Both the position numbers and the translations under genes were made by a program. Shown in pieces: positions 23,399 to 63,422 of a DNA stretch of 64,000 bases. Source of the DNA: Gammaproteobacteria bacterium (GTDB lineage: Bacteria; Pseudomonadota; Gammaproteobacteria; Pseudomonadales; Halieaceae); NCBI GenBank assembly GCA_030426545.1, contig JAUHYL010000012.1, positions 5,637 to 69,636 on the forward strand, read 5' to 3'. The notes beneath the pieces are model-generated. The model saw nothing but the letters and a program-made list of their open reading frames with translations. It ran no database searches and was not told the origin of the DNA. The stretch's first letter is position 1. The number at the start of each line of letters is the position of its first letter.

Positions 23399-23480
23399 GG
23401 TGACGCTTCCAGTGGGATACCGAACGCTTATTATTACCACTCGCCGCCGCTATGTACCAGTGTCCCGCGTCTGCGGGTTG

Positions 23481-25499
23481 TCAGTCGACCGCCTGCAACC
23501 AGATCGGCGATGACCAGGCGCGCTCACGCAGGGTGGCCGGCACTTGCGGCGGCGGTTCGCGCCCCAACCGGATGGCATCGTAAGTTGACCAGCGGCAGGT
23601 GGGATTCTGTAACACACGGGTGTAATAAAAGGCGCTCTGCTGGGGATCGTAGTGCGGGTCCCGCCAGACAACGCTGAGTTCAGTCGCGCCCTGGGAACCC
23701 GTCAGGCTGCAATCGGCGATGTTGACGCCAGCGTCGCCCTCAGGGCAACGCGCTGTCGTCGTATCCACCGGCACACCGCCGGCGCAGGCGATATCGCGCA
23801 CCGCTTCATGGGTAACGCCTTGCTCATCGATCCAGCCCTTGACCATCTGGATACGCTGCAGCGGTGCGCTGAGCGGGTCGGCCGCTGCCCAGACAAAAAA
23901 TGCGGGGCTACCCCGCCCCGCGTCCAGCGGTTTGAGGATGCCCCCCATGGGCACGCCGGCACCGGTAGCGAGCGCGATCGCGCCCGGATCATTGACGATC
24001 TCCTCATCGAAACCCCACCCGGCAAAAAACCGTAACCCGATACGCGGCCCAGAGGTGGCGTAGGTTTCCTTGCGCTGCATCGCCGAGAACAGCGCGTCGC
24101 GGGTATTTTCCTCGGCCCACACCGCAGCCAAACCGCCGGACGTGTGATGTTGCAGGTTGGACTCGTAGGGCTTGCGATCGGGCCACTCGCGCATGCGCCG
24201 CACGGCCGGTGAGGTCACCGTGCCGACTTTGCCCACGTAGTCCCACTCCTCGGCATCACCGGGATTGGCGTTGTGCGTATCCGTAGCGGCAATGAATCCG
24301 AAAGCGAGTGGATTAAAACCCTTGTCCCGCTCCAGTTGCAGGCCGATTTTCAGGCCCTGGCGCGCAAAGCTCGAGGTAAAGGCACAGCCGCCCAGCTCGC
24401 CAGCCTCACACGGCGGCAGCACCTGCCCGAAGGCACACTCCTCATCCGTGGCACCGACACCCAGCGCACACTCTGAGGCACCCTTCACCTGGTAGATCTC
24501 GGCAATGGGCTCACGCGCGTCACGCAAACGCCAACCAGCCTCGTCGTACGCCTTGCCATCCCAGGTGTAGGGGCTGTAGAACAGGCCCCAGCCCTTGTTC
24601 ATATTGTGCGGTATGGTCAGGAAATCACAGTCACCGGTACAGGTAGTCTCCAATTCGCGCCACAGGTCAGTGGCATTGCCCACGTCCAGGGACGACACGG
24701 CGTGTGTCGGCAGATCGTCGCCATTAAAAATCACGTTGCGATGGTGTTTGCCCGACTGCGGCAGGGCGGGCGAGAATTCATAGCCGGCGAAAGTCGTAAG
24801 TACGCCGGGCTCATTGTACTGGTCGGCCAGAGCGCGGTAGCGCGCCCAGTCACTGTTGCTGTCGCGGTAGCAGCGATCCGGGTCGGACTCGTCGCGGCAG
24901 ATGGGCCAACTTTGATAGTCCAGCCTGGGGCGCGACCGGTTTTGGTAGACACCCGGCTCGCCTCTCGCGAGGGCTTCAGTCTCCTGGTCGGCAAGCGCTC
25001 TGATTAGCAGGAATACCGTGAGGCTCGGTGTTTCCAGAAAGTAGCAATTGATCTTCTCGTTCCATGACAAACCCGCATCGGCACAGCGCGTCCGCAGACC
25101 GAAGCTCTCCGAGTGATCGGTGATGGCGAGGAAATCCAGCGGGCGCGACAACTGCATCAATTCGCCACCGTCACTGCGCAACGGCTCTCCCCTGGCGAAC
25201 CGGTAGGCATCTTCCACACCCAGGGAGTTACCGAACAGCTTGGCGTCAAAGCTCTCCTGGGTGTGAATGTGTAGTTCACCCCAATAGACGTTCTTCAACG
25301 GATTGTAGGGGCGCTCCCGCAGTGGCTCCGTGGCCGGCACCGGGATACGCGAATCGTCCTGCAGGGCATAATCATCCAGTGCAGTTGTCGGCGATGCGGC
25401 GGCGGTAAGCTCGCGCACGGGAGCCAGCACAATAAACCAGAGCACCGCGACGCCTGCCACCAGGAGCAACGCGAATATCATCAGAACACGCTTGAACAT
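23481..25499 (-). CDS. DUF3604 domain protein (PHP-like metal-binding), paralog 1, N-terminal membrane anchor
   Basis: 'WGELHIHT..SFDA', 'LSRPLDFLAITDHSE', 'HRNVIF', 'IPHNMN', 'TDTHN', 'RKETYATSGPRI', 'QERAWSSPIW'. Confidence 0.85.
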   Translation of the reverse strand: MFKRVLMIFALLLVAGVAVLWFIVLAPVRELTAAASPTTALDDYALQDDSRIPVPATEPLRERPYNPLKNVYWGELHIHTQESFDAKLFGNSLGVEDAYRFARGEPLRSDGGELMQLSRPLDFLAITDHSESFGLRTRCADAGLSWNEKINCYFLETPSLTVFLLIRALADQETEALARGEPGVYQNRSRPRLDYQSWPICRDESDPDRCYRDSNSDWARYRALADQYNEPGVLTTFAGYEFSPALPQSGKHHRNVIFNGDDLPTHAVSSLDVGNATDLWRELETTCTGDCDFLTIPHNMNKGWGLFYSPYTWDGKAYDEAGWRLRDAREPIAEIYQVKGASECALGVGATDEECAFGQVLPPCEAGELGGCAFTSSFARQGLKIGLQLERDKGFNPLAFGFIAATDTHNANPGDAEEWDYVGKVGTVTSPAVRRMREWPDRKPYESNLQHHTSGGLAAVWAEENTRDALFSAMQRKETYATSGPRIGLRFFAGWGFDEEIVNDPGAIALATGAGVPMGGILKPLDAGRGSPAFFVWAAADPLSAPLQRIQMVKGWIDEQGVTHEAVRDIACAGGVPVDTTTARCPEGDAGVNIADCSLTGSQGATELSVVWRDPHYDPQQSAFYYTRVLQNPTCRWSTYDAIRLGREPPPQVPATLRERAWSSPIWLQAVD

Positions 25500-27104: not shown

Positions 27105-28427
<1,323 letters not shown>

Positions 28428-35715: not shown

Positions 35716-36507
35716 ATGGCACTGAACAATATCCTGGTCGTGATTGACCCTACCGTGGACATTCAACCGGCCTTCGAGCGCGGGCTCGATTCCGCACGCG
35801 ACACCGGTGCGAAGCTGCATCTCTACGCCTGCATGAACCCGGAAGACGACAATCTGCAGCAGGGCATGTCGGCGCTGCAGGATTTGCTGGAAGGGCTTGA
35901 GCAGCGCGCCGTGACCGACGGTATCGAGGTCAGCACGGAAATTGAGCAGCACGGTGACTGGGCTGCCCGGGCGGTTGCCGCCGCGGCCCGACTGGGTGCC
36001 TCCATGGTGTTCAAGAACTCAACCGATCACGCCCTCGTCGACAGGGAGAAGCGACGTACTTCAGACTGGACGCTGCTGCGTACCTCGCCGTGCCCGGTTC
36101 TCATGGTCAAGAACTTTCATGACTGGGGTGGGCGCAAGGTGCTGGCCGCTATCAATCCGGCCTCACCGGAAGCGGCGCACATTAAACTCGACAACCAGAT
36201 TGTGAGCTTCACGCGGCAACTGGCCGCCAGCTATGGTTCTGATGCGCACTTCGTTATCGCCTTCCAGGATCTGAATAATCCGCCGGACACCGCGGCGATT
36301 GCACAGAAGTGCGGGGTTAGTGCGGAGCACGTGCACACCCGGAAAGGCAAGCCGGCAGAGGTTATTCGTGATATTGCCAGGGAGATCGACGCCGATTTAA
36401 TCGTGGTCGGCACCGTGGCAAGAGACGGCATCAAGGGCCGCGTGATCGGCAATACCTGTGAAAAACTGCTGGATCAGACGCACTCCGACGTGCTGGTGCT
36501 GAACTGA
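35716..36507 (+). CDS. Universal stress protein, tandem Usp domains (UspE-like)
   Basis: 'NILVVIDP', 'DWTLLRTSPCPVLMVK', 'VLAAINP', 'DLIVVGTVAR.GI.G.VIGNTCEKLL'. Confidence 0.9.
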   Translation: MALNNILVVIDPTVDIQPAFERGLDSARDTGAKLHLYACMNPEDDNLQQGMSALQDLLEGLEQRAVTDGIEVSTEIEQHGDWAARAVAAAARLGASMVFKNSTDHALVDREKRRTSDWTLLRTSPCPVLMVKNFHDWGGRKVLAAINPASPEAAHIKLDNQIVSFTRQLAASYGSDAHFVIAFQDLNNPPDTAAIAQKCGVSAEHVHTRKGKPAEVIRDIAREIDADLIVVGTVARDGIKGRVIGNTCEKLLDQTHSDVLVLN

Positions 36508-36564: not shown

Positions 36565-37335
36565 TCAAAGATCGACCACGTTAGAGCGCACCAGCAGGCC
36601 ACCGTCCACCACCAGATCGTGGCCCGTCACAAACGAGGCGCGCTCGGAACACAGGTACGCCACTGCGTCGGCGATTTCCTCCGGTGCTGCCAGTCGGCCC
36701 ATAGCGTGGGCATTCAGCACCTTCTCGCGCATATCCTCCGGCAGCGTATCCAGGTAGAACTGCATACCACCGGATTCGATTCCCGCAGGACACACCGTGT
36801 TTACCCTCACACCACGCCGGGCATATTCCACCGCCGCCGACTTGCCCAGCGTGATGACGCCACCCTTGGCAGCGGCATACGCCGCCTGCAGCGCCTCGCC
36901 GCGCATGCCCGACACCGATGCCACATTGATAATGGCACCGCCACCGCTGGCCTCTATCGCCGGTAATTGATATTTCATACTCAGCCACACGCCGCGCAGT
37001 GTGACCGACATGCAGCGATCCCATTCTTCTTCGCTGATGGAGGCCAGCGGTTTCGTCTCGATGCCAAGCGCCGCGTTATTGCATGCCATGTGCAGCGCGC
37101 CAAATTCCTCGCGGGCCGTGTTCACCGCCTTCTGTACGTCGGCGGTAACGCTCATATCGGCCTGCACGTAGACGGCGTGGCCGCCCTGGCCACGAATCAA
37201 CTCTACTGTCTCCTGGCCGCCCTCCTCCCTGATATCGGCGACCACCACCTGCGCGCCGGCGCGATCAAACGCACGGGCGATGGCACGCCCGGTGCCGGCG
37301 CCACCGCCCATGACCAGCGCTACTCTATTTGCCAT
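36565..37335 (-). CDS. SDR family oxidoreductase (likely NAD-dependent)
   Basis: MGGGAGTG, ADI, CNNA, YAAAK. Confidence 0.92.
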   Translation of the reverse strand: MANRVALVMGGGAGTGRAIARAFDRAGAQVVVADIREEGGQETVELIRGQGGHAVYVQADMSVTADVQKAVNTAREEFGALHMACNNAALGIETKPLASISEEEWDRCMSVTLRGVWLSMKYQLPAIEASGGGAIINVASVSGMRGEALQAAYAAAKGGVITLGKSAAVEYARRGVRVNTVCPAGIESGGMQFYLDTLPEDMREKVLNAHAMGRLAAPEEIADAVAYLCSERASFVTGHDLVVDGGLLVRSNVVDL

Positions 37336-37377
37336 GTCTCACCCTCCTGCTAAAGGCCACCGCCAACAACCCCCGGC

Positions 37378-38775
37378 TCAGAACACACGGAAGCGTTTGC
37401 GCACATGCCGCTGGCGCAGGGCGATCTGCGCGCGGCGCTGCTCGGGCGTCACCGAAGACGTGTCCGCGGGCAGTTCCGAACGGATGGCATCAAATGCCAC
37501 CTTGCGCGCGGAGATTTCGGGCCAGTCGCCTTTCTCCGGCTTCTGGCTGTAAGCCCAGCGGGCCGTGAGAAAACCCTCGGCATGGCCCGTGGTATCCAGC
37601 CAGTTGGGCACGCCCGGATCGCGGTGTGCCAGCACGGTGCGATACACCCCGTCCGCATCCGCGACCATCTGGTGGCCGTTGAGACTGCCGATACTGTTGG
37701 CGTACTCGATGGATTCACCCCACAAATTGCCGATCTGGAAGCCGACATACTGCGGTGGCAGCTTCACCCGATTCTCGATGATCAGCGCTTCCTCCGGGCC
37801 CAGTTCAAACACGCCACCGGCGTACAGGTTGGTGCTCTGCCCTCCCCCGGTCGCGCCGGAGGCGGCGTTCACCGTGTTAAACCCGTTCCGGGGAAAAGCA
37901 ACGCCGGGAATACTGCCTTCGCGTTCACCGTACGTGCCCATGAGGATTGTCCAGAAGGCATTCCAGTAGTGCATCTGGTTGCGCACCAATTCACCGCACT
38001 GGCGTAACTGCGCGGCTGCGCCGGCGCTGTCATAGGGCGGTGCGGCAGTGCCTTCGGCGCCCAACTGCTCAATTTCGAGGTGAATCGCCTCTTCGTGCTC
38101 CCAGTCACAGAACAACTGCCGGCCGCTGATGGTGTTCGCGTAGCGCTGTGGCGGACTGTCGGGATTGAAGGGGTGCGGTTTGTCCGCCACCTTGAGCGTG
38201 GCGATATAGTTGCCGCTGTAATCGGCGGGCTTCTCGGGCGCGAGCAGGATTACGAACTGACCATCCGCGTCCACCTGCAGCGCAGAAGAATCCAGCCTGC
38301 CGGTCTGCGTTTTCACGCCCGGCGTCAGCTCCGCCAGGGTGCCCGAATCACCGGCCATCACGCCCTCCATGGCTTCGAAGATCAGGTAGAACGGGGCTTT
38401 AGGGCCGGCCTCAATCGCCGCCTCACCACGCCAGTGACGGTGATCGCCTACGCGACCGCGAATCCTGTAGCTTGCGCGCCCGTCTATAGGCGCATAGAAG
38501 TAGATGGCATCGGCATTGTCGATGGTGCTGCGATTGATAATGGACAGCGCATTGCGAAAGTGTGGCCGCACCGGGTCCTCGTGAAAGGCGCGCTCAATGC
38601 CGTAATGCATGAAGCCCATCAGGTAGCGATACCCTTCCGCCAGGTTGCGCTCACTGGCGGGCGGCGGCATCAGCTCAGGGTTATCGATGGCATCGCGCGC
38701 GCTCTCCATGGCACGGATAAGATCGTCCCAGGCCGCGCGCAGTTCACGCCGGGTTTGTTCAACGTCGTTGCTCAT
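37378..38775 (-). CDS. Uncharacterised DUF1214-like protein
   Basis: 'LAEGYRYL', 'IDNADAIYFYAPIDG..SYRIRG', 'VPNWLDTTGH.EG..TARW' match the pattern I associate with DUF1214-containing proteins found beside sulfotransferases. Confidence 0.6.
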   Translation of the reverse strand: MSNDVEQTRRELRAAWDDLIRAMESARDAIDNPELMPPPASERNLAEGYRYLMGFMHYGIERAFHEDPVRPHFRNALSIINRSTIDNADAIYFYAPIDGRASYRIRGRVGDHRHWRGEAAIEAGPKAPFYLIFEAMEGVMAGDSGTLAELTPGVKTQTGRLDSSALQVDADGQFVILLAPEKPADYSGNYIATLKVADKPHPFNPDSPPQRYANTISGRQLFCDWEHEEAIHLEIEQLGAEGTAAPPYDSAGAAAQLRQCGELVRNQMHYWNAFWTILMGTYGEREGSIPGVAFPRNGFNTVNAASGATGGGQSTNLYAGGVFELGPEEALIIENRVKLPPQYVGFQIGNLWGESIEYANSIGSLNGHQMVADADGVYRTVLAHRDPGVPNWLDTTGHAEGFLTARWAYSQKPEKGDWPEISARKVAFDAIRSELPADTSSVTPEQRRAQIALRQRHVRKRFRVF

Positions 38776-38786
38776 GGTGTTGCTCC

Positions 38787-39638
38787 TCAGGCCGTAGCAT
38801 CCAGGTCAGCGGGCAGGAAGGCATCGCCAAGGTCACTGTGACCATCCAGGCTCATGACACGCCTGCCCCGGGCATGCAGGAGCTGGCGACTGTAACAAAC
38901 CTGTCCCACACAGCGATCACTGCACAACAGCAGCGCCGCCTCGGCCATGACCTCCACCGGCTCCGCCATATCGGGGCTGCGCCTGGCGATATCACGCACG
39001 TAGTCCGCCCCTGAAGTCAGTACAATATTCTCGGGCGCAAGCGTATTCACATACACCCCGTCCGCAGCCACCTCGTGTCCCAGCCCCTGCGTGTAGCGAT
39101 CCAGCGCCGCCTTGGTGGCACCGTAGGCGGTGATGACGTGTGCGGCGATCTGCGAATCCCGGTACGGCACCACGGGCTGCTTCGCGCTGAAACTGCTGAT
39201 GTTCAGTATCCAGCCGCAGCCACGTTCGCGCATGCCCGGCAGTGCCTGCTGTGCGAGGTCCACCGGGGCATTGAGATTCACCTCGTACATCCTGTTGCGT
39301 TGCTCGCGCGTGACTTCGCTGGGCAGGCGCATGCTGGAAGCGGCGGCGTTGTTGACGATGATGTCGAGGGGGCCGAAATGCGCTTCGGCACGGGCGACGA
39401 GATCGGCGCGCGCGGAATCATCACTGAGGTCACACACCTCTGCCGCCGCACGACCACCTGCCGTCTGGATCGCCGCCACAGCACCCTCCAGCGTGCCGTG
39501 CAGATCACCATGCGCACCCAGCCGGGAAGCACACAACACCGTGTTAGCGCCCTCCGCGGCGAAGCGCTTCGCTATGGCCAGCCCGATGCCGCGACTGGCA
39601 CCGGTAATCAGTGCGTTCTTACCCTGTAGTAGCGCCAC
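38787..39638 (-). CDS. SDR family oxidoreductase
   Basis: TGASRGIG, VNNAA, YGATK; the start overlaps the sulfotransferase stop by 1 nt. Confidence 0.92.
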   Translation of the reverse strand: MALLQGKNALITGASRGIGLAIAKRFAAEGANTVLCASRLGAHGDLHGTLEGAVAAIQTAGGRAAAEVCDLSDDSARADLVARAEAHFGPLDIIVNNAAASSMRLPSEVTREQRNRMYEVNLNAPVDLAQQALPGMRERGCGWILNISSFSAKQPVVPYRDSQIAAHVITAYGATKAALDRYTQGLGHEVAADGVYVNTLAPENIVLTSGADYVRDIARRSPDMAEPVEVMAEAALLLCSDRCVGQVCYSRQLLHARGRRVMSLDGHSDLGDAFLPADLDATA

Positions 39639-40801
39639 TAGACACTCTCCTCGATGGCATTTGCCAGTTCACCGCCACGCGGCCACGCGTGCCGTATAAA
39701 AAAGTCACCCAGTTCGTCTTCGATACGTTCCGCCGTCACCTCAAACTCGTCGAGGCTATAGCGAAAGCGCGTCGTGTGCCCGCGTTCCCTCTGCTCCTGC
39801 TGTACCAGCCAGTTATCGAACGTCTCAGACAGGGGAAGCTGCAGGGCCGCATAGATTTCGTGTACGGTCTGCCGGGGCTCGCTGATCAGCGCGCGGTAGT
39901 CCACTACCACCTGCGGAGTTTGCGGATTCTTCGCCAGCACATTGTCCGGGTGCGTAAAGCTCTCAAAGGACACGTCGGTGAGCATGGCGAGGGAACCGGC
40001 GTACGCGCTGCGTTCCCAGCCCTTGCCCTTCCACGTCACCTCCACCAGCTTCAGCACGCTGGGAATGCACTCCAGCGGGTTGCGCATCATGACAACGATG
40101 CGCGCATCGGGAAAAGTATCAATCAGCGACTGCACCCAACCACTCATCAGCGGGTTTTTTGACAGGTGTGTCCTGTCGCCGCCATTGAAAGCAAGCTGGC
40201 GCTTCACGCACTCACGGTAGTGGTGCATCCAGCGACGGCGTTTACGCGCTGGCAGCTGATCGACATGGAAGATGTCGAGCACATCCATCATGGGAATATC
40301 CAGCGCCCACTGCTGGGTAACGAATGCTGCACGCATGACAAACTGGTCTTCCTCGGAATTCCACAGACTCATATTGTGCATATGCCGGTACGGGCCAAAG
40401 GTCTTGTCATCCCAGGCAACCAGTTTCTTATTGATTGCACTGCCCAACAGACGGCGATCCAGCCAGCCCAGGCCACGCAACACCTTCTTTTGTAGCAGTG
40501 ATGGAAAAAACATTTCCCAGTAAAGGAAGTAACTGAAGGTATCGCCGTCCGCTGCCAGCAGCCGATGACAGAGGGTGGTACCGGAGCGCGCGTGTCCGAC
40601 GATAAAGACCGGTCGTTCTACCTTCTGCCGCCACAGCGAGGGAAACAGCAGGTAGTCGAGCAGGAAGCAGCTCGCGTTGAAGGCATATTCCAACGGCACC
40701 ACGAGGAGTAAACGCAACAGGGTGGCGCGTCGCCCTTTCCAGCCTTTGAGTGACCAGACGTGGCGCAGCACACGCCAGTAGTTTTGCAGATCAAAGTACA
40801 T
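39638..40801 (-). CDS. PAPS-dependent sulfotransferase
   Basis: 5'-PSB loop 'VGHARSGTT', 'LSKNP', 3'-PB motif 'MRNPLECIPS'. Confidence 0.9.
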   Translation of the reverse strand: MYFDLQNYWRVLRHVWSLKGWKGRRATLLRLLLVVPLEYAFNASCFLLDYLLFPSLWRQKVERPVFIVGHARSGTTLCHRLLAADGDTFSYFLYWEMFFPSLLQKKVLRGLGWLDRRLLGSAINKKLVAWDDKTFGPYRHMHNMSLWNSEEDQFVMRAAFVTQQWALDIPMMDVLDIFHVDQLPARKRRRWMHHYRECVKRQLAFNGGDRTHLSKNPLMSGWVQSLIDTFPDARIVVMMRNPLECIPSVLKLVEVTWKGKGWERSAYAGSLAMLTDVSFESFTHPDNVLAKNPQTPQVVVDYRALISEPRQTVHEIYAALQLPLSETFDNWLVQQEQRERGHTTRFRYSLDEFEVTAERIEDELGDFFIRHAWPRGGELANAIEESV

Positions 40802-40824
40802 GCCGTACCGCTAACCCCGCAGCG

Positions 40825-41247
40825 TTATGCCGTTACCGGCTTCATCAGCAAGTCAAAGGCCTGCTTCGAATCCCAGAATTCCTCGAAGTACGCCACCTTG
40901 CCCCCTGACAGCCTGATCAGGAACAGGTAGTCGTTCAGGTAGTCGCCGCCCGTCCTGGTTTTGCAGCGCATGCTGAAGCGGTAGATCACGTGATTGTCTT
41001 CAGCCTCGAGCCAGAGCTCATCAAACTGCTCCACAGTTTCAGGGAGGTAGCCGGTGGATAATTCCACACCGCTGTCGGCAACGTGCTTCACGGCATCCCA
41101 GCCCACGTGTTCCAGGCCGTCTGCGCCCGGGATGGGCATGCTGCGCGTGGTCTTCCAGGTCACATCGTCGGTAGCGACACTGCGGGCCAGCGGCGGGTCG
41201 GCCCAGAGATTACCGAAAAAGGTTTGTGCCACTTCCTTGTTGGTCAT
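40825..41247 (-). CDS. SnoaL/ketosteroid-isomerase-like NTF2 protein
   Basis: True start ATG 41247 overlaps the nitroreductase TGA (ATGA); 'YLNDYLFLIRLSGGKVAYFEEFWDS'. Confidence 0.82.
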   Translation of the reverse strand: MTNKEVAQTFFGNLWADPPLARSVATDDVTWKTTRSMPIPGADGLEHVGWDAVKHVADSGVELSTGYLPETVEQFDELWLEAEDNHVIYRFSMRCKTRTGGDYLNDYLFLIRLSGGKVAYFEEFWDSKQAFDLLMKPVTA

Positions 41248-41915
41248 GGGCGTTTCTCCTGCCATGCATTCCAGTGCATCACCTCGCGCGCCGGGCGACG
41301 CTGCGCCGGGCGGAAATCCAGCCCCTTTGTGTAAGCCACCGGGAATAACCCGGCCTGCGTGTAATCTGCATACGGTATGCCCAGCACCTCTGCTGCCTGC
41401 TCTTCCTTCCACAGGTGCAACGTGGTCAGCGCGCTGCCCAAACCGCGGGAACGCAAGGCCAGCATAAAGCCCCAGGCGGCGGGCAGGATGGAGCCCCACT
41501 GACTGGCCTGGTAGAACACGTTCTGGCGCTCAACCTTGCCGCGCATCAGTGGGATCACCAGCACCGGCACCTGCGCCATGTGCTCGATCAGGAAATAAAC
41601 CGATTCAGAAATCTGGCCCATGCGCTCATTGCGGCCGATATCGCCGCCGCTGAGCAATTCGGGTTTTTCATCCAGCAGGCCCATGAAGTGGGCGAGCGCG
41701 TCGCGGTTGATCTCCGCCAACTGGCGACGCGTCTCCGGGTCGTCGATGACCATCCATTCCCAGGTCTGCTGATTCGAACCATTGGGTGCCTGCAGCGCCA
41801 GATCAAGGCACTCCTCCACCACCTCGCGCTCTACCGGGCGTTCAAGATCCAGGCGCTTGCGTACGTTGCGCGTGGTGGTGAGCAGTTCATCGATACTCAG
41901 GTCAATTGCCGGCAT
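41244..41915 (-). CDS. Nitroreductase family protein
   Basis: Start ATG 41915; 'TTTRNVRKRLD', 'QAPNGSNQQTW', 'LALRSRGLGSALT'. Confidence 0.9.
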   Translation of the reverse strand: MPAIDLSIDELLTTTRNVRKRLDLERPVEREVVEECLDLALQAPNGSNQQTWEWMVIDDPETRRQLAEINRDALAHFMGLLDEKPELLSGGDIGRNERMGQISESVYFLIEHMAQVPVLVIPLMRGKVERQNVFYQASQWGSILPAAWGFMLALRSRGLGSALTTLHLWKEEQAAEVLGIPYADYTQAGLFPVAYTKGLDFRPAQRRPAREVMHWNAWQEKRP

Positions 41916-41963
41916 TCGATCATCTCCCTTGCTGCCGTCATTACGCCTCGCGCCAGCGTGCAA

Positions 41964-43172
41964 TCAGGCAGGGGTCAGCCTGACCGGCATTTCCTTGAAG
42001 CCGTGAATACTGTTGGAGCGTATAAACACGGGATCACCGCTGGCTTCGATAGCCGCAAAATGGTTGAAGAACTCCTCGAAAAAAACGCGCGCTTCCAGCC
42101 GCGCCAGATTGGCGCCCAGGCAAAGGTGTATGCCATGGCCAAAGGCGAGGTGTGGGTTCGGGTCGCGCCGTATGTCGAACTCCATCGGCCGGTCGAACAC
42201 CGCAGGATCAAAATTGGCGGCGCTGTACATCATCACCACCCTGTCACCGGCGCTGATTTTCTGCCCGGCAATCTCGGTGTCTGTTGTCGCGGTGCGACGG
42301 AAGTAATGCAAAGGGCAGGTCCAGCGCAACATTTCCTCGATCGCCAGTGGCAACTCCTCCTGACGCTCGCGCAGCCGCTGCAGTAGCGCCGGGCGCTGCA
42401 GCAATTCGTGCATGCCGCTGCTGATCAAACCCCGGGTCGTCTCGTTGCCCGCCACGGTAAGCTGTACAAAAAGCGATGCGAATTCCGTTTCCGTTACCAG
42501 GTGCCCTTCCACCTCCTGGTTGATGAGCAGCGATATAAGGTCATCACCACCCGCGTCCTTGCGCTGCATCGCCAGTTCGAAACCGTAGGTTCCCATATCG
42601 ATGGTGGCCTGCGTGACTTCCTCTGATGTACCGCCCAGGTCTGGATCCGTGCTGGAGGTCTGCAGGTCAGACCAACGCCGTATCTGGCTCCATTTGTCGC
42701 GCGGTATCTCCAGCATGGAGCAGATCACTGCCGTGGGCAGGTCACCGGCCAGGCTTTCGACGAAGTTTACTTCAGTGGGCTCACTGATCTGCGCCATCAC
42801 CTCGCGGGCTATGCCGCGCACCTTGGGTTCCAGCTCGGCCAACATGCGCGACGTGAATCGCGTAATGACCGCGCGCCGCAACGGGCCGTGTTTGGGCGGA
42901 TCCATGCCCAGCAACTGATTGCGCGCCATATCGAGGATATCCGGCGGCAGGTCATCGACCATGACAAACCCCTGCTCTGCAGAAAAGGTTTTGAAATCAC
43001 GCGATACCTTCAACACATCCGCATGTCGGGTGAGTACCCAGTAGCCGTAACCCTGCGGGTGCTCGTGCCAGTGCACCGGGTCATTTTCACGCAGCCACGT
43101 AAACTGGTGGTGAGGAATTCCGGCTGTGTAGCTATCCGGACTATAAACGTCGATATCCACCGCTCTGCGCAC
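41964..43172 (-). CDS. Cytochrome P450 (CYP125/CYP124-like pattern)
   Basis: Start GTG 43172 or 43160; 'MDPPKHGPLR', I-helix 'AGNETT', ExxR 'EEMLR', heme motif 'FGHGIHLCLG'. Confidence 0.93.
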   Translation of the reverse strand: MRRAVDIDVYSPDSYTAGIPHHQFTWLRENDPVHWHEHPQGYGYWVLTRHADVLKVSRDFKTFSAEQGFVMVDDLPPDILDMARNQLLGMDPPKHGPLRRAVITRFTSRMLAELEPKVRGIAREVMAQISEPTEVNFVESLAGDLPTAVICSMLEIPRDKWSQIRRWSDLQTSSTDPDLGGTSEEVTQATIDMGTYGFELAMQRKDAGGDDLISLLINQEVEGHLVTETEFASLFVQLTVAGNETTRGLISSGMHELLQRPALLQRLRERQEELPLAIEEMLRWTCPLHYFRRTATTDTEIAGQKISAGDRVVMMYSAANFDPAVFDRPMEFDIRRDPNPHLAFGHGIHLCLGANLARLEARVFFEEFFNHFAAIEASGDPVFIRSNSIHGFKEMPVRLTPA

Positions 43173-43173
43173 G

Positions 43174-43623
43174 CTACTCAACGATAACCGGCGGGTTGGG
43201 CACACCCATCTCCGCGCACATGGCGAGATAAAACTCCAGCGTGAGCGTACCGTCCACCACCGACGTGATGTTGCCCTCTGCATCGAGGTTAATATTGGAG
43301 CCGTACATCTGGAACCATACCTGTGTGTCATCTTCGATGGCGGTCAGCGTGTGCTCCGATCCTGCCGGTTCGTAGAGGAACGAGCCGGCACGGTTAACGT
43401 AATCGTATTCCTTGTACTTCCAGGCGCCGGAGCGGGTATAACCAAATACCGGGCCGGTGTGCCGGTGGGTATCCACTTCATAACCGGCCTTGAAAATATT
43501 TTCGACGATCCACAAACCCTCCTTGGGGCGTACCTGGAGCACCTTTAGCAGACTACCGTCACCGATATCCACGAAGGGGAGTTCGTCGGCGCCGAGATGT
43601 ACCGCGTCGGGGTGAGTCATCAT
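43174..43623 (-). CDS. Cupin, 2,4'-dihydroxyacetophenone dioxygenase-like
   Basis: 'HRHTGPVFGYT.SGAWKY.EY', 'GSFLYEPAGSEHTL'. Confidence 0.8.
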   Translation of the reverse strand: MMTHPDAVHLGADELPFVDIGDGSLLKVLQVRPKEGLWIVENIFKAGYEVDTHRHTGPVFGYTRSGAWKYKEYDYVNRAGSFLYEPAGSEHTLTAIEDDTQVWFQMYGSNINLDAEGNITSVVDGTLTLEFYLAMCAEMGVPNPPVIVE

Positions 43624-43762
43624 TATTCTCCTGTCTGTCAGCGTGGGCGTTGTTTTTCAAAATGGTGTTGCAGTTCTACGCAATCACTCTGTATAGCATG
43701 TCGCAGCGCTGCTGTTCGCTGTTCACTCGCGCTCTCGCGATAGTTTTGCGGCGCGGCATAAA

Positions 43763-44794
43763 TTATTGCGCCGGTGCCTGCAGTTCAGACACCACCCGGG
43801 CAACCTGTTCATCATCGGCCGGGTCTGCCGGCATGGGGAACGTGATGCGGCGGGTCAGGTCACCATAACGTTGGCGATAGACGTTCGCGATCGTGTCGTA
43901 AGTGCCGCGCGGCACGAACGTTTGCAACATGTCGTCGGTGACAATGTCCGGCATCGACTCCCAGCGCCCTTCACGCGTCAAATCGAGCAGCTGCTGCCCC
44001 TTGTGCTGCCAGCCGAACAGTTCAAGACTGGGCCAGTAGGCAGGTGTGGAATAGAGAAAACCCAGCATCGCGCGCTGCTTTTCCCAGTTGGCCGCCACCG
44101 CCTGCTCATCCTTGCCGCTGGCCGCGAGCGGACCCAGCACCAGGTGAAACGAAGCCGGATCGCGGCCCGCCCGTTCAAAACCCTGCTGCAGGCGCGGTAG
44201 ACAGACCTGCCGGATATATTCCGGCGGTGTATTGGTGGGATGGGTGATCATGCCGTCCGCTATGCGCCCCACCATGCGGGTCATGGCCGGGCCTACTGCG
44301 CCGCACAGGATAGGGATGTGCGGATGCTCGATAGGCCCCGGGTTGAAAAAGGGCTGTAGTTTGGTCAACTGGTAATGCTCACCCTCAAAATTCAGCCGGT
44401 CACCCGTCTGGAAACTGTGGAACACGGCCTGCATCGCCTGCACATACTCGCGCAGTTGCGGCACGGGCGAGTCCCAGCGGGCGCTGTAGCGCTTTTCTAT
44501 GTTGGGTTTAATCTGCGTGCCCAGCCCAAGCTCGAAGCGCCCGCCAGACATGTCCTGCAAATCCCAGGCGGCAATCGCCGTAATCATCGGGCTGCGCGGA
44601 AACGCCAACAGTACCGCCGTACCGACAATAAGCTTCTCGGTCGCATTGAGCGCCATGGCGGCCAGCAGCAACCCGTCATGAATCGCATCGGGCACATGCA
44701 GACCATTAAAGCCCATCGCCTCCGCACGCGCCGCGTGGGCACCAATGTCGCCGGGACCCATATCCTCCGGCGTGGAGGCGAAAACCTCGAACAT
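43763..44794 (-). CDS. LLM-class oxidoreductase of the F420-associated TIGR03617 (MSMEG_2256) type
   Basis: 'AFPRSPM..A..AWDLQ..SGGRF.LGLG.QIK..IE.RY', 'PFFNPGP', 'LITHPTNT', 'YSTPAY' equivalents. Confidence 0.8.
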   Translation of the reverse strand: MFEVFASTPEDMGPGDIGAHAARAEAMGFNGLHVPDAIHDGLLLAAMALNATEKLIVGTAVLLAFPRSPMITAIAAWDLQDMSGGRFELGLGTQIKPNIEKRYSARWDSPVPQLREYVQAMQAVFHSFQTGDRLNFEGEHYQLTKLQPFFNPGPIEHPHIPILCGAVGPAMTRMVGRIADGMITHPTNTPPEYIRQVCLPRLQQGFERAGRDPASFHLVLGPLAASGKDEQAVAANWEKQRAMLGFLYSTPAYWPSLELFGWQHKGQQLLDLTREGRWESMPDIVTDDMLQTFVPRGTYDTIANVYRQRYGDLTRRITFPMPADPADDEQVARVVSELQAPAQ

Positions 44795-44813
44795 GCCTTG
44801 ACCCTTCCTTTTA

Positions 44814-44843
44814 ATAAGCTAAACTGACTATAAGCTAAACTGA
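44814..44843. promoter_or_regulatory. Tandem 14-bp direct repeat in the LLM/MarR divergent promoter
   Basis: ATAAGCTAAACTGA at 44814-44827 and 44830-44843 (16-bp period). Confidence 0.65.
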
Positions 44844-44859
44844 TCAAACAGCAATTGCA

Positions 44860-45312
44860 ATGGCTAAACGCTTCCCCGAACCAGGGCTGGTCACACCCAG
44901 CGACCTCGGCCAGACGCTGATGCTGGTGTCACGCGACTTCCACCACCGCCTCACGCTGGACCTGAAGTCCCGCGGCGTGGAAGGTGTCAGCGCCCGCCAC
45001 AATGCCGTATTTCTCTACCTGGGTCGCAACGGCCCCAGCCGCGCGGTTGACCTGGCACTGGCCGCGGGCATCCGCCCGCAGTCTATGATGAAGATAGTGC
45101 ACGAGCTGGAAGAAATGGGGCTGGTGACGCGACAGCCCGACCCGGACGACTCCCGCGCGAAACTTATCGACTTTACCGCGCGGGGCCGACGCTTTATCGC
45201 CGAGCTCAGGCAATCCACCGAGACAGTCTGGCAACAGTACGCCGATCTGCTGGGTGAAACCGCACTGCAGGACACAATGTCCCGGCTCAACCGGCTCGTA
45301 ACGACAGCATAA
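44860..45312 (+). CDS. MarR family transcriptional regulator
   Basis: wHTH 'LEEMGLVTRQPDPDDSRAKLIDFT.RG'. Confidence 0.92.
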   Translation: MAKRFPEPGLVTPSDLGQTLMLVSRDFHHRLTLDLKSRGVEGVSARHNAVFLYLGRNGPSRAVDLALAAGIRPQSMMKIVHELEEMGLVTRQPDPDDSRAKLIDFTARGRRFIAELRQSTETVWQQYADLLGETALQDTMSRLNRLVTTA

Positions 45313-49481: not shown

Positions 49482-51206
49482 CTAGAACGGAAAGATGCGC
49501 GGGATAAGAAAAATCACCACGCTGGAGTAAACCAGCGAAACCGGCAGCCCGGCGCGAAAGTAGTCGCGGAACTCGTAACCGCCAAGGTTCTGCACCATCA
49601 GGTTGGTGGTGTAGCCGTAAGGTGTCATGAAGCTGGCGCTGGCGCCGTAGGCCACCGCCATCACAAAGGGCATGTAGCTCACACCGAAACTTTCCGCCAG
49701 GCCAAAGGCGACAGGGAACGCCAGCGCCGCGGCAGCGTTGTTGGTCATGGTCTCGGTCAGCAACAGCGTGCCCAGGTAAATCCCCGCCATCGCCCCCCAG
49801 GGCCCCAGTACCGAGAGATTCTGGTGCAGCGTGTCTGCCAGCAATGCGACGGCACCGGAATTGGTCAGCGCCTGCGACAGGGTCAGCGCCGAGGCAATGA
49901 TCAACCACAGTTCAAACGGGAAGCGGCGCCGCAGTTCTGAGCCACCGACCACACCTAGCGCGAGCATCATGACCAATAGCCCCGCCACACCCTTGATCAG
50001 CGGAACAATATCCAGCGTCGCCAGTGCGATAACCAGGAACAGGCCGGCGGTAACGAGTGTGTTTTGCAGGGGCGTGACACGCGCCTCGCCCACCGCTTCA
50101 TCCACCACGACAAAATTTTTGTCGAGGTTCTTGCGCTCGTTAAAGTCCGGGCCTACCGCCAGCATCATGCTGTCCCCGGCCTGGATAGTGATATTCCCCA
50201 ACTTGCCGGAGAGGCGCTTACCACCGCGCCGCATACCGACCACGGCGGCATCAAACTGTGACCGGAAGGCACTCTCCTTGATCGTTCTGCCCTCGATGGT
50301 GGCGTTGGGCATGACGATCACTTCAATCATGTTTTCCCGCAGCAACCCTTCCTCTACCGCGAACAGGCGCAGGCCGTCGAACTGCTCCAGCGTTTGAACC
50401 TGTTTGATATCGCCGGAGAAAATCAGTTTGTCACCCGCGCGAATCCGCTGTTGCGGCGCGACCGGTGAAAGCAGGTAGTCGCCGCGCACGATCTCCACCA
50501 GGAACAGGTCTTCCAGGTCACGCAGCTTGTTCTCAAGAATGGTTTTGCCAATCAGGTTCGAGGCTTCGCTGACCTCCGCTTCGATCACGTACTCGTTGAC
50601 GTCTATGGTTTCCGTGCGACCGATGGGCAGCAGGCGTGAGCTGAGCAGGATCACGACAAGGCCGCAAACGGTGGCCGTTCCGCCGACCAGCAGAAAATCG
50701 AAAAAGGCCAGGCCCTCGCCCGTTGCATCCTCCAGGAAACTACTGACGATCAGGTTGGTGGAGGTACCGATCAAGGTCATGGTGCCACCCAGGATGGCGG
50801 CATAGGACAGCGGTATCAGCAGCTTGGAAACCGCGTGATGACGATTGGTACGCACCGTGTGCGCCAGTGTCGCGACCACGGCAGTGTTGTTCACCAGCGC
50901 CGAGAACAAAGCCGTTGCCGCGCCCAGGCGCAGCACGCTGCTGGTATAGCTGGGTGTTATCAGCGAATTCGACAGACGACTGAGCCAGGACAGCTTCTCC
51001 AGCCCGGTGGACACGAGCAACAGCAGCACCAGCGTAACCACGCCGGTGTTCGTCGCCTTCTCCAGTACCTGCGCGGTCTCAACCAGGCCGAAGAAGTAAG
51101 CCACCAACATGGTGCTAACAAAGACCCAGACTGCAGACCAGTGGGTGAAGATAAGACAGTACAGCAGGACGCCGAAAAGCACGGCGACCAGCACCTGATC
51201 AAACAT
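49482..51206 (-). CDS. SLC13 family permease with two TrkA-C domains
   Basis: Likely start ATG 51206; 'SALVNNTAVV', 'LIGTSTNLIV', two TrkA-C-like repeats, 'ETMTNNAAAAL', 'FMTPYGYTTNLMV'. Confidence 0.9.
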   Translation of the reverse strand: MFDQVLVAVLFGVLLYCLIFTHWSAVWVFVSTMLVAYFFGLVETAQVLEKATNTGVVTLVLLLLVSTGLEKLSWLSRLSNSLITPSYTSSVLRLGAATALFSALVNNTAVVATLAHTVRTNRHHAVSKLLIPLSYAAILGGTMTLIGTSTNLIVSSFLEDATGEGLAFFDFLLVGGTATVCGLVVILLSSRLLPIGRTETIDVNEYVIEAEVSEASNLIGKTILENKLRDLEDLFLVEIVRGDYLLSPVAPQQRIRAGDKLIFSGDIKQVQTLEQFDGLRLFAVEEGLLRENMIEVIVMPNATIEGRTIKESAFRSQFDAAVVGMRRGGKRLSGKLGNITIQAGDSMMLAVGPDFNERKNLDKNFVVVDEAVGEARVTPLQNTLVTAGLFLVIALATLDIVPLIKGVAGLLVMMLALGVVGGSELRRRFPFELWLIIASALTLSQALTNSGAVALLADTLHQNLSVLGPWGAMAGIYLGTLLLTETMTNNAAAALAFPVAFGLAESFGVSYMPFVMAVAYGASASFMTPYGYTTNLMVQNLGGYEFRDYFRAGLPVSLVYSSVVIFLIPRIFPF

Positions 51207-51345
51207 TGAGCAAATCCACGGCCCGGTGATAAGCGCAAAGGATACGCGCAGGAGGGGCCAGGCCACAATAGCCAGCGCACGGGACAAACTGCCACGTCAA
51301 TGGGCTACACTGTTACGCCGATACCGTCACAGTGCCCCTGCGCCC

Positions 51346-52743: not shown

Positions 52744-54720
52744 CTAGGGCCCGGCGTTTTTCAACGCCGCGGTCGGCGCGGCGCCGCCGGGAGGCGTATA
52801 CCAGATCGGTGACGTCCAGGCGCGCTCCTGCACCACAGGCTTGTGTTCAGCGGCACAGCAGGCTTCCAGCCCTTCACCGATCGTCCGGGTATCGGCGCAG
52901 TTCACGCCGCTGGCAGCACACAGTCGTTGACTCCAGCGGCAGCTCGGATTCTCCACAGTCCTGGCGTAGTAATAAGCCGACTCAGCAGGATCAAAACCCT
53001 CATCAGTCCACACGGCGCACAGTTGCTCGAAGCCCTTTCCACGGGTCTCGCAGGTCGCGGTGTCAACACTGGCGCCATTGTTGGCGTCCCCGGCGACGTC
53101 AATGACCTCCTCACGGTACTCACCCGACGCCAACAGGCGGCCCTTGATGACTTGCAGACGCTGCAGTGGCACACCCGTGCTGCCCGACGTACCCGCATCC
53201 TGTTGTGACAACAGCAGGAAGCGAGGTTTGTCCCCGGCATCCGACGCATCGGCAGCCAGTTCCGCACCCATCGGCACACCGCTTGCGTAGGCCCGTTCTA
53301 TGCGGTCTGTCTGCTGGCACAAGTCCTCGGCATAGTCCCACCCGGCAAAAAAGCGGCTGACGATACGCGGACCGCTGGTCGCATAGCTTTCCCTGCGCCG
53401 CATGGCATCAAACAACGCATCGCGACTATTTTCCTCTGCCCACAACACCGCAAGGCCACCGGGGTTGTACTCCAGCTTGTCGGGCAGGCCGGGCGGTATG
53501 CGCTTGCGAGCCGGCACACCGGCACCGCCGTGGCCCAGGAAGTCGTCCTCCTGCACCGCACCGGGCGTGCCCAGGTGCGTATCCGTGCTGGCAATGAAGC
53601 CAAACTGGTACGGGTTTACGCCAAGGCGGTGCTGCAAAGCCATGCCCTCGCCCAGCGCCTCACGCACAAAGCCGGTATCGGGCTGCGGTGGATTGGGATA
53701 CCCGGCGATATTGTCTTCAGGTAGTTGTTCAAAGGCGCACAGTTCGTCTTCTGTGACGCCGGGCTTGAAGTAACACTCGGAGGCGCCCTTGTGCTGCATG
53801 ATTTCTACCAGCGGCTCAAACCGCGCCCGGGTTGCTGCATACTCTGCCTGCATGGGCTCACCGTCAGCGCCCAGGCCGTCAAACATAGCGCCGGCACTGA
53901 GGTTTGAATTGTGCGGAATCACCAGCGCGTCACAGTGACCCGCGGCCTGCAGGCACTGCGCGTCCAGCGCATCCCACAATTTGTCCGGCGCCGGCCCGTC
54001 GATGTAACTGAAAGGCAGCTCAGGTACCTGCGCATTGCGGAACACGACGTTGCGGTGCAGGTTGCCGCCAGAAGCGGGCTGCACCCCGGTCCACTCATAG
54101 CCGACGAAAGCTGTGAAGTCACACTCGGAGCTGCGGTCATAATGCGTCTCAGCCGCCTCGCGCATTTCGCTCCAGGGCTGCCGCGCAGCATCCAGACACA
54201 GCTGTGCATCTTCGCCGCACAGGCCAAGGTGGCTCGCCTTGATGGATGACATAAAGTTAAACAGGTAATAGGCGCCGCGCGGAAAATTGCGATAGAGCAT
54301 GCACTGCCAGGCGTTGTAGCCTTCCACCTCCGGCGTGTTACACATATACACTTCACCGATCAGTTCGGCGTGATCAGACACCATGGCGAAGTCCAGCGGT
54401 CGCGCCAGTTGCAGCGAGCGCAGCGCTGTATCCTCGTCAGTCCATGGCTGGATACCCACTCGCTTGCCGCGCGCGAACGCGTAGGCCTGGGCGGGTGTGG
54501 TACGGGTACCCTGGGTGCTGGCATCCAGTGAATAGCGCGTATGCACGTGAAGATCGCCAAAAAATGGCTGGCGCAGCGGATCGCGCACGGCGCAGGGTTG
54601 GCGCTGTTCCGAGTAGTCCATCGCGCTTGTCACCTGACTAAACACGGCCAGACCCAGCGCAAACAGCACGACGCGGTATAGCATCAGCCGTGGCCTCGGC
54701 CAACGAGATTCGAGCGTCAC
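52744..54720 (-). CDS. DUF3604 domain protein, paralog 2, with signal peptide
   Basis: 'FGDLHVHTRYSLDA', 'LARPLDFAMVSDHAE', 'HRNVVF', 'IPHNSN', 'STDTH', 'RRESYATSGPRI', 'QERAWTSPIWY'. Confidence 0.85.
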   Translation of the reverse strand: MTLESRWPRPRLMLYRVVLFALGLAVFSQVTSAMDYSEQRQPCAVRDPLRQPFFGDLHVHTRYSLDASTQGTRTTPAQAYAFARGKRVGIQPWTDEDTALRSLQLARPLDFAMVSDHAELIGEVYMCNTPEVEGYNAWQCMLYRNFPRGAYYLFNFMSSIKASHLGLCGEDAQLCLDAARQPWSEMREAAETHYDRSSECDFTAFVGYEWTGVQPASGGNLHRNVVFRNAQVPELPFSYIDGPAPDKLWDALDAQCLQAAGHCDALVIPHNSNLSAGAMFDGLGADGEPMQAEYAATRARFEPLVEIMQHKGASECYFKPGVTEDELCAFEQLPEDNIAGYPNPPQPDTGFVREALGEGMALQHRLGVNPYQFGFIASTDTHLGTPGAVQEDDFLGHGGAGVPARKRIPPGLPDKLEYNPGGLAVLWAEENSRDALFDAMRRRESYATSGPRIVSRFFAGWDYAEDLCQQTDRIERAYASGVPMGAELAADASDAGDKPRFLLLSQQDAGTSGSTGVPLQRLQVIKGRLLASGEYREEVIDVAGDANNGASVDTATCETRGKGFEQLCAVWTDEGFDPAESAYYYARTVENPSCRWSQRLCAASGVNCADTRTIGEGLEACCAAEHKPVVQERAWTSPIWYTPPGGAAPTAALKNAGP

Positions 54721-56588: not shown

Positions 56589-56768
56589 GGGCTCTTTCAT
56601 TTTTTAGCGTGTGAGGTGAACACTAGGCGCGCGACTGGCAGGGGTCAACCACCCGGGCCGCATTGTTGAACCGAATTGCCCGATTTATTTTTACGCACTG
56701 GTTGCGCGCACCCTGCACTGCCACACTGGCGGCGTTCTCCCAGACACGTGCGGGTAATCGCTGACAGC

Positions 56769-58514: not shown

Positions 58515-58524
58515 GCATTGCCGT

Positions 58525-63268: not shown

Positions 63269-63422
63269 GATCTTCACCTTATTGTTTTGCTGCGATGGAA
63301 GGATATCAGACCGTCGTTCACATGGGTGCAACGGCTCCTAACTGTTTCGTTGCTGGCGGCAACGCCTGCCGCTGAAGATGCGCCGGGACGCAGTTCACGG
63401 AATGATAGGAGCATGAACCCGT

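Follow-up and report, generated by a model that had tools for sequence, protein, structure and literature searches.

The operon at 36565-43623 of a 64,000-nucleotide stretch of the genome of a Halioglobus-type gammaproteobacterium of the Halieaceae (GenBank assembly GCA_030426545.1, contig JAUHYL010000012.1, positions 5,637 to 69,636; hereafter the window, or contig C122 within a genome of 4.35 Mb and 98% completeness) raises the question of what a 3'-phosphoadenosine-5'-phosphosulfate (PAPS)-dependent sulfotransferase does next to a cytochrome P450 among genes of steroid degradation. The reading that we prefer, with confidence and doubt in about equal measure, is that this is an accessory operon of a steroid-catabolic island, put together from joined modules, in which a steroid-like lipid would be oxidized and then sulfated with PAPS as part of catabolism. 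According to this scheme, a non-heme-iron cupin of the 2,4'-dihydroxyacetophenone dioxygenase (DAD) type would be translationally coupled to a CYP124/CYP125-type P450, which most likely would hydroxylate a sterol-like or methyl-branched lipid at a terminal methyl or a side-chain carbon; a membrane-peripheral Stf-type sulfotransferase, together with a DUF1214-like protein (DUF1214L), would then O-sulfate a hydroxyl of the substrate, and short-chain dehydrogenases/reductases (SDRs) would interconvert hydroxyl and keto groups. A second SDR would end the operon, and a nitroreductase-fold/NTF2-like cassette between the P450 and the sulfotransferase would be optional. Hydroxylation followed by sulfation is a possible order of events; we infer from the gene content that the substrate is a sterol-like lipid and that either the P450 product or another hydroxyl of the same molecule is sulfated.

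The eight genes, which an earlier note on this DNA had listed without database searches, are all real open reading frames on the minus strand, with spacers of at most 50 nt and two start/stop overlaps, and the catalytic motifs in their translations are intact, namely the heme-cysteine loop FGHGIHLCLG and AGNETT in the P450, the RSGTT loop in the sulfotransferase and YxxxK in both SDRs. Pfam searches agree with the names given to most of the families (Cupin_7, p450, Nitroreductase, Sulfotransfer_3 and twice adh_short), whereas SnoaL and DUF1214 are matched only weakly. In the direction of transcription, the operon encodes the DAD-type cupin (43174..43623; Cupin_7, 48 bits); the P450 of the CYP124/CYP125 group (41964..43172 with a GTG start; with a TTG at 43181 as the alternative start, the gene overlaps the stop of the cupin gene); an optional nitroreductase-fold flavoprotein (41244..41915; PF00881, 63 bits); an optional small NTF2/SnoaL-like protein (40825..41247; weak match to SnoaL_2), whose gene is ATGA-coupled to that of the nitroreductase; the Stf-type PAPS sulfotransferase (39638..40801; Sulfotransfer_3, PF13469, 90 bits); SDR1, a classical SDR in the middle of a sulfotransferase-SDR-DUF1214L triad (38787..39638; adh_short, 138 bits); DUF1214L, a protein of the Rv3531c/6ANS family recognized by its homology to an Rv3531c ortholog and to the PDB entry 6ans (37378..38775); and, as the last gene, SDR2, a FabG/PRK06172-like protein (36565..37335; adh_short_C2, 202 bits; PRK06172, 277 bits, which is under the cut-off of that model) that is convergent with a universal stress protein (USP) gene at 35716-36507. 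The junctions, in the same order, are 1 nt between cupin and P450 (an 8-nt overlap with the TTG start), 48 nt, the 4-nt ATGA overlap at 41247-41244, 23 nt, the 1-nt TAGTG overlap at 39638, 11 nt and 42 nt. The GC content is even across the region.

The gene arrangement goes beyond chance because its order, starting with the upstream gene for a luciferase-like monooxygenase (LLM)-class oxidoreductase and continuing through cupin, P450, sulfotransferase, SDR1, DUF1214L and SDR2, was found again in about 24 species-level genomes, as the earlier note had proposed to check. In these Halioglobus-type genomes, the seven genes lie on one strand, and those for a crotonase, an SDR and a MarR regulator on the other. 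The sample comprised one genome per species and 72 loci with a sulfotransferase ortholog, in which all window proteins were searched by tblastn; the denominators given here (63, 65 and 47) are the loci with enough flanking sequence. The P450 gene is located at most 400 nt upstream of the sulfotransferase gene in 24 of 63 loci, with constant order and strand, and the cupin gene within 2 kb of it in 26 of 63. For DUF1214L, the corresponding counts are 45 of 65 loci within 3 kb and 38 of 47 within 8 kb, and for SDR1, 42 of 65 and 33 of 47, respectively; within 8 kb, the LLM gene is present in 25, the MarR gene in 17 and the nitroreductase gene in a single one of the 47 loci. SDR2 directly follows DUF1214L in about 22 relatives. 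Distant genomes, including those of Seongchinamella, Pseudohalioglobus, Endozoicomonas, a Myxococcota metagenome-assembled genome (MAG) and TMED88, keep the sulfotransferase and DUF1214L alone, usually with SDR1 and often with LLM. The locus is a conserved tight unit assembled from separable modules, and the notion of a single indivisible eight-gene pathway has to be abandoned given that the cupin-P450 pair and the sulfotransferase core separate in distant genomes and that the nitroreductase-SnoaL pair is dispensable.

The same modularity is what would be expected if two unrelated functions were encoded side by side, with the cupin-P450 pair starting sterol side-chain catabolism in the manner of CYP125, the triad acting on a different acceptor, and the adjacency being regulatory. 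The P450 and cupin genes are unlinked from the sulfotransferase gene in loci L033, L036, L070 and others, only 21 of the 47 loci have a P450 within 10 kb, and the genome that contains the window has five other sulfotransferase/DUF1214L pairs without a P450. Such a juxtaposition nevertheless appears somewhat unlikely, given that fewer than 400 nt separate the end of the P450 gene from the start of the sulfotransferase gene in 24 species, in the same order and on the same strand, that the spacing in the window suggests translational coupling, that the mycobacterial counterpart of the triad itself lies within a cholesterol locus, and that the locus L082, which encodes a natural fusion of the two core proteins, is populated by genes for acyl-CoA dehydrogenases, MaoC, an old yellow enzyme (OYE)/FadH-type protein, SnoaL_4 and a TonB receptor.

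The nitroreductase and SnoaL-like genes are missing from nearly all relatives that share the operon order. The nitroreductase matches the PDB entry 4dn2 (1.6e-15) and, distantly, albonoursin synthase; the SnoaL-like protein scores 18.5 bits against SnoaL_2 (cut-off 27, E-value 0.003), and no PDB match was found for it. In the closest relative, locus L077, where the sulfotransferase is 94% identical and the flanks are identical, a 54-codon open reading frame lies between the P450 and sulfotransferase genes. In the DNA alignment, this frame (L077:9765-10000) joins, at a GGTGG microhomology, ~33 codons from the start of the nitroreductase gene to ~20 codons from the end of the SnoaL-like gene, and it is the scar of a ~920-bp deletion, which implies that the cassette was present in a recent ancestor and is dispensable. 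Locus L035 encodes a 49% nitroreductase homolog followed by a 28% SnoaL-like homolog, here placed between the DUF1214L and SDR1 genes, which gives the cassette a loose tie to the sulfotransferase core.

The surroundings of the operon are those of a steroid-catabolic island. The window encodes the Rieske oxygenase KshA (58447-59592; KshA_C, 3.5e-57), a KstD-like flavoprotein for which the best NCBIfam matches are 3-ketosteroid delta-1-dehydrogenases (56676-58514), and a FadA5-like thiolase above the cut-off of the "steroid 3-ketoacyl-CoA thiolase" model (27138-28427), along with two Ltp2-type "lipid-transfer" proteins that are also above cut-off, two ChsH2-type DUF35 proteins, MaoC-like hydratases, acyl-CoA dehydrogenases, an OYE-family reductase, several SDRs, a TonB-dependent receptor and TetR regulators. 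This position speaks against the earlier suggestion that the operon modifies its compound rather than simply degrading it. Halieaceae had been predicted from metagenomes to degrade steroids, and an isolate was then grown on cholesterol (PMC5790920).

The P450, which the earlier note had attributed to enzymes that oxidize the termini of sterols or branched lipids, indeed falls, by sequence similarity, in the CYP124/CYP125 group of terminal (omega) hydroxylases. Its closest solved relative is CYP125MRCA (394 bits, 48% identity), a reconstruction of the ancestral CYP125 that acts as a hydroxylase on cholesterol, phytosterols and vitamin D3. Extant CYP124, CYP125, CYP268 and CYP126 score 240-253 bits (CYP124: 253 bits, 38% identity), CYP125A1 of Mycobacterium tuberculosis about 221 bits and CYP142 about 190 bits; the extant CYP125 chains cover 221-245 bits and so are level with CYP124, CYP268 and CYP126. 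Under P450 nomenclature, belonging to a family requires an identity of 40% or more with one of its members; because the window protein is less than 40% identical to each extant characterized member examined, no CYP family can be assigned, and the proposed family check yielded only the group placement. The FGHGIHLCLG heme loop, the AGNETT I-helix motif and EEMLR (ExxR) align with those of CYP125MRCA and CYP124. With the steroid C26 and methyl-branched-lipid omega-hydroxylases CYP125, CYP124 and CYP142, the protein shares AGNETT, the heme-cysteine loop and full-length alignability, and it sits among steroid side-chain genes, like CYP125-type enzymes. Unlike CYP125 and CYP124, for which we know of no description of such an arrangement, it is coupled to a DAD-type cupin. 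The cupin matches the PDB entries 3ebr (5e-17) and 5bpx, DAD (3e-14), retains the three histidine metal ligands (HRH and EH align with HYH and GH of 5bpx) and, in the relatives, is always paired with the P450; an attractive idea is that it would cleave an alpha-hydroxyketone produced by the P450. The closest P450 paralog in the genome (40% identity) is encoded beside a KshA-like Rieske oxygenase gene at C11:15624-18007, which suggests a second steroid-type locus.

The core of the operon also has a counterpart in a steroid locus. In Mycobacterium kansasii (locus L073), the Rv3531c-Rv3530c-Rv3529c (stf1) operon, part of the mycobacterial cholesterol (KstR) regulon, has hsaEFG on one side and kshA on the other and is a coupled unit encoding a 379-aa protein without a Pfam match, an SDR and Stf1. 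DUF1214L aligns with the 379-aa protein (L073:6077-7216) over nearly the full length (27% identity, E-value 7e-40). The similarity of SDR1 to the Rv3530c-like SDR (29%, 2e-15) is of the level generic for SDRs, and that of the sulfotransferase to the Stf1-like protein (25%, 1e-14) is ordinary for the family. The window and the mycobacterial locus share the same three families in a tightly coupled unit within a steroid-catabolic cluster close to kshA. They differ in gene order (sulfotransferase-SDR-DUF1214L in the window, DUF1214L-SDR-sulfotransferase in mycobacteria), in the regulator (MarR as opposed to a KstR-type TetR), in the length of DUF1214L, which in the window is ~85 residues longer via an insertion, and in the cupin-P450 pair, second SDR and optional nitroreductase/NTF2 cassette that the window operon adds. 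Judging from these alignments, the triad as a whole module is a homolog of the operon in the mycobacterial cholesterol locus, and the statement that no described pathway could be matched was too strong, all the more since cyp128-stf3, another P450-sulfotransferase operon, was already known. In the literature, Rv3529c and Rv3530c are listed as involved, not as essential.

The strongest predicted functional link within the triad, and one that ranks above that between the P450 and the sulfotransferase, is the link between the sulfotransferase and DUF1214L. The sulfotransferase has 1479 homologs, mostly in Halieaceae, the best of which come from Halioglobus and from MAGs and isolates of other Halieaceae, and its only solved relatives are Stf1 (2zq5, 5e-13) and Stf9. 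Residues G69, R72, G74-T76, K215-N216-P217, R240 and S248 are invariant, Stf1 and Stf3 included, and comprise the 5'-phosphosulfate-binding motif GxxRxGTT (5'-PSB) and the 3'-phosphate-binding residues R240 and S248 (3'-PB), so that the PAPS-binding motifs are kept; the genome encodes an adenosine-5'-phosphosulfate (APS) kinase and, therefore, PAPS can be made. The N-terminal ~60 residues are hydrophobic/aromatic; a transmembrane helix was considered for this region and rejected as unconvincing (peak Kyte-Doolittle hydropathy 1.46), and it is taken to be a peripheral amphipathic region. About 10-13 Stf-like sulfotransferases, ~20 P450s and 8 DUF1214L paralogs are encoded in the genome. Of 10 sulfotransferase and 8 DUF1214L genes, six each are paired in a shared operon: that of the window on C122 and those at C76:6849-9190, C83:66125-68406, C114:67395-70752, C114:71696-74177 and C22:162214-165449. 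This organism has a strong expansion of the family. One of the two C114 pairs has the order DUF1214L-SDR-sulfotransferase, as in mycobacteria. An LLM-like gene lies upstream of one of the five pairs outside the window.

Across Gammaproteobacteria, few genomes encode a member of the DUF1214L family (5 of 151 in an even draw), and in two other gammaproteobacterial families (genomes G023 and G041) it adjoins an Stf-type sulfotransferase in all three testable loci. An exhaustive profile-free search yielded 2,542 cluster representatives, and the best match, P0361, is a natural 834-aa fusion of a sulfotransferase part (residues 1-374), with 58% identity to its counterpart in the window, and a DUF1214L part (residues 379-834), for which this value is 60%; a second natural fusion is P0407. 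The 743-aa open frame of locus L080 in genome G041 also was considered as a fusion and rejected, being in fact two overlapping genes in different frames. Adjacency and fusion suggest that the sulfotransferase and DUF1214L work as a pair, probably in the form of a complex.

The biochemical role of DUF1214L is less readily predicted. The whole protein scores 25.7 bits against the Pfam profile DUF1214 (PF06742, cut-off 25), a value that none of its stretches reaches by itself, and the match is confined to residues 163-194. A Foldseek search started with an AlphaFold2 model (predicted local distance difference test score, pLDDT, 87) retrieves the Burkholderia cenocepacia structure 6ANS with a template modeling (TM) score of 0.86, in line with the sequence match to 6ans (5e-22), whereas VPA0106 and VPA0735, of the DUF1254/DUF1214 type, resemble the model only weakly (TM 0.37-0.47). 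Among the structure matches, there is no functional fold and no known lyase or hydrolase fold, and in the literature on DUF1214 nothing functional was found. The invariant polar residues include E61, D67, N87, D89, Y92, Y103, D143, R219, D386, R406 and H457, and a basic C-terminal helix is invariant as well. A paralog on contig C50 (C50:9419-11112) carries a twin-arginine-type signal peptide (MDRRELIKGAALSSLAGG...) and is a periplasmic version of the protein; no sulfotransferase gene is beside it, and a small SnoaL-like gene precedes it.

The homology with the mycobacterial operon and the pairing with the sulfotransferase invite a more specific proposal, namely that an Stf-type sulfotransferase and an Rv3531c-family protein form an unrecognized two-component sulfation machine, at times fused into a single protein, that makes a sulfated steroid intermediate in the steroid islands of Actinobacteria as well as marine Gammaproteobacteria, with the sulfate as a leaving or handling group. 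This would be a missing PAPS-consuming step of aerobic sterol catabolism, which in the window would be fed directly by a CYP124/CYP125-type hydroxylase. We offer this as a tentative possibility that is more doubtful than not; if true, it would explain the need for Rv3531c in the growth of M. tuberculosis on cholesterol.

A related alternative takes sulfation as the activation of a steroid or isoprenoid alcohol that the P450 or an SDR would provide, the sulfate ester being a leaving group in a transient catabolic intermediate from which DUF1214L or the NTF2-like protein would catalyze elimination or substitution (dehydration, deoxygenation or inversion). There are precedents for enzymes of the sulfotransferase fold that activate hydroxyls for elimination (PMC11730487). 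The closest fold neighbors of the sulfotransferase model are Stf9 and Stf1, followed by the sulfotransferase (ST) domains of CurM/Ols (4gbm, 4gox) and retinol dehydratase (1x8k, 1fml), all at low TM scores. These latter enzymes, which are polyketide synthase (PKS) domains or an insect enzyme, use sulfate as the leaving group on a lipid alcohol, and the many invariant polar residues of DUF1214L are those expected of an enzyme. The similarity, however, is of the family level only (TM 0.3-0.5, 12-14% identity), so that the idea of a leaving group is kept without being supported by it; no known lyase or hydrolase fold matches DUF1214L, and a thioesterase or an equivalent partner is absent here, unlike in the activating-sulfotransferase systems. 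A hint in the same direction comes from the fusion homolog, given that an SdsA1-type alkylsulfatase gene is located in the same gene run in L082, whereas none of the five SdsA1-type alkylsulfatase genes of the genome containing the window adjoins a sulfotransferase/DUF1214L pair. On this evidence, activation is unlikely to be the role of the window operon. The same-strand run that follows the fusion gene (L082:8001-16177) encodes an epimerase-type SDR, SnoaL_4, the TonB receptor and the alkylsulfatase (Lactamase_B and Alkyl_sulf_dimr domains), and a sulfation/desulfation cycle in that locus, for example for alcohol inversion, is a possibility.

The known operon that combines a P450 with an Stf-type sulfotransferase is cyp128-stf3 (Rv2268c-Rv2267c) of M. 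tuberculosis, which makes sulfomenaquinone (S881) and has cyp124 adjacent. The likeness lies in the order, a P450 followed by an Stf-type sulfotransferase of ~388 aa with a hydrophobic N-terminus, and in the logic, in which a terminal isoprenoid carbon is hydroxylated and then sulfated. The M. tuberculosis operon is without DUF1214L, the two SDRs and the cupin, unlike that of the window. By this analogy, the window operon could be biosynthetic and make a sulfated membrane or signal lipid like S881 from an endogenous isoprenoid, for example the tail of ubiquinone, a carotenoid or a hopanoid-like lipid. The deepest split of a maximum-likelihood tree (100/99 support) indeed leaves the clade of the window sulfotransferase on the same side as Stf3, and some orthologs bear the Joint Genome Institute (JGI) name "omega-hydroxy-beta-dihydromenaquinone-9 sulfotransferase". 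The tree, however, has very long branches with long-branch warnings; identity to Stf3 is only 22% (E-value 1e-14) and that of the P450 to Cyp128 29%, with CYP124 and CYP125 being nearer. In the 98% complete genome, the best MenD match reaches 38 bits where 244 are required, and there is no match to MqnA/D, that is, no futalosine pathway. Identity of the two operons and the JGI name as a function were both rejected on these grounds, and the low identities together with the absence of a menaquinone pathway leave the sulfomenaquinone operon as only an analogue. The neighboring genes are catabolic, and the divergent MarR-type regulator and patchy distribution better fit an accessory catabolic or detoxification unit, so that a biosynthetic role appears very unlikely. 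In Mycobacterium decipiens (locus L075), stf3 and cyp128 are absent.

Upstream of the operon, the organization is as the earlier note described it, with the LLM gene followed by a divergent MarR-SDR-crotonase unit. The LLM-class oxidoreductase (43763..44794, minus strand) is of the F420 type (TIGR03617, 349 bits against a cut-off of 278), and the MarR-family regulator (44860..45312, plus strand) has weak MarR-type NCBIfam matches and is annotated with PF12802/PF01047 in L077. The 65-bp gap between them contains a tandem direct repeat of two copies of TCAGTTTAGCTTAT (44814..44843, minus strand), a putative MarR operator; the two copies are the only matches in the window (0.09 expected), and the element is kept in more than 20 related genomes and overlaps a sigma-70-like site at 44798-44825. 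This site is the only useful outcome of a promoter and terminator scan, in which the matches were at or below the shuffle expectation and mostly intragenic. The LLM/cupin gap (43624-43762, 139 bp) is poorly conserved save for a -10-like element (GCTACACT/TATACA) ~60-70 nt upstream of the cupin start, which may be an internal promoter. The LLM gene possibly is the first gene of the transcription unit, and MarR and LLM, immediately upstream, probably control the operon.

Contig C128 (34246-39148) carries a complete-looking F420 cluster that encodes a fused FbiC (CofG+CofH, an 877-aa frame), CofD and CofE; CofH/FbiC and CofE are decisive here, given that the Pfam search for CofD is uninformative (Escherichia coli also matches). 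Judging from these genes, this gammaproteobacterium probably is able to make F420, so that the TIGR03617 LLM can truly be F420-dependent, and this would account for the presence in the window of LLM and nitroreductase-fold genes in "actinobacterial" style. Further along, a transporter of the CitMHS/Na-sulfate-symporter type with two TrkA_C domains (49482-51287, minus strand) occupies the same place as in L077 (526-2250), and it is conceivable that it supplies sulfate or another anion for PAPS. Two large DUF3604 proteins are encoded on the minus strand among the lipid and steroid genes, at 23481-25499 (E-value 5e-199) and 52744-54720 (5e-169), one of the genes adjoining that of an RPE65-type carotenoid oxygenase (21857-23440). 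Another Sulfotransfer_3 gene (63423-63983, minus strand) runs off the window end (C122:69221-69898) beside the gene of a serine beta-lactamase-fold protein (62096-63331).

The regulator bears on yet another alternative, that of detoxification, in which algal or sponge sterols, terpenoids or xenobiotics would undergo hydroxylation and sulfation akin to phase I and phase II for export. A MarR-type regulator and the numbers of Stf-like sulfotransferases and P450s in the genome are compatible with such a role, and sterol sulfation does exist in bacteria: BT0416 of Bacteroides thetaiotaomicron is a PAPS-dependent sulfotransferase that acts on sterols (PMC9417993). The BT0416 locus, likened here to the window by its literature description alone, contains PAPS-synthesis genes and lacks a P450, a DUF1214-like partner and a catabolic context. 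There is no efflux pump in or beside the window operon, the nearby transporter is of the CitMHS/Na-sulfate-symporter type, and the neighboring genes point to full degradation, which makes detoxification highly improbable.

Several observations weigh against the preferred reading of an oxidizing and sulfating operon within steroid catabolism. The linkage between the P450 and the sulfotransferase is confined to the Halioglobus clade, and in Seongchinamella and other genera the cupin-P450 pair is ~9 kb off, in some cases on the other strand, or absent. The other sulfotransferase/DUF1214L pairs in the genome are not beside obvious steroid genes, so that the pair itself seems to be generic and the substrate in the window is deduced from the neighboring genes alone. 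The C83 paralog is closer to Stf1 (36%) and groups with it in the tree, so that the window copy is not orthologous to Stf1. The tree of the sulfotransferases disagrees with that of DUF1214L, and hence no claim is made that the pairs duplicated together. The operon encodes no ferredoxin or reductase partner for the P450. Finally, we know of no established rationale for spending PAPS inside a catabolic route.

To our knowledge, no function has been assigned to Rv3529c-Rv3531c in the roughly two decades that they have been placed in the cholesterol locus of M. tuberculosis, and no substrate of Stf1 is known. The module is present in non-pathogenic, partly cultivable marine bacteria, namely Halioglobus japonicus, Seongchinamella and Pseudohalioglobus, which could serve to work out the role of its mycobacterial counterpart. 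Seongchinamella and Pseudohalioglobus have the core alone, whereas in Halioglobus-type genomes, including H. japonicus, it is joined to a sterol-type P450, which narrows the substrate search. The pairing and the fusion define a testable two-protein unit and provide the first functional handle on a family of ~2,500 clusters with a single orphan crystal structure (6ANS). If sulfation is a part of sterol turnover, this would be a new type of reaction in bacterial steroid degradation and would bear on the cycling of the abundant marine sterol sulfates.

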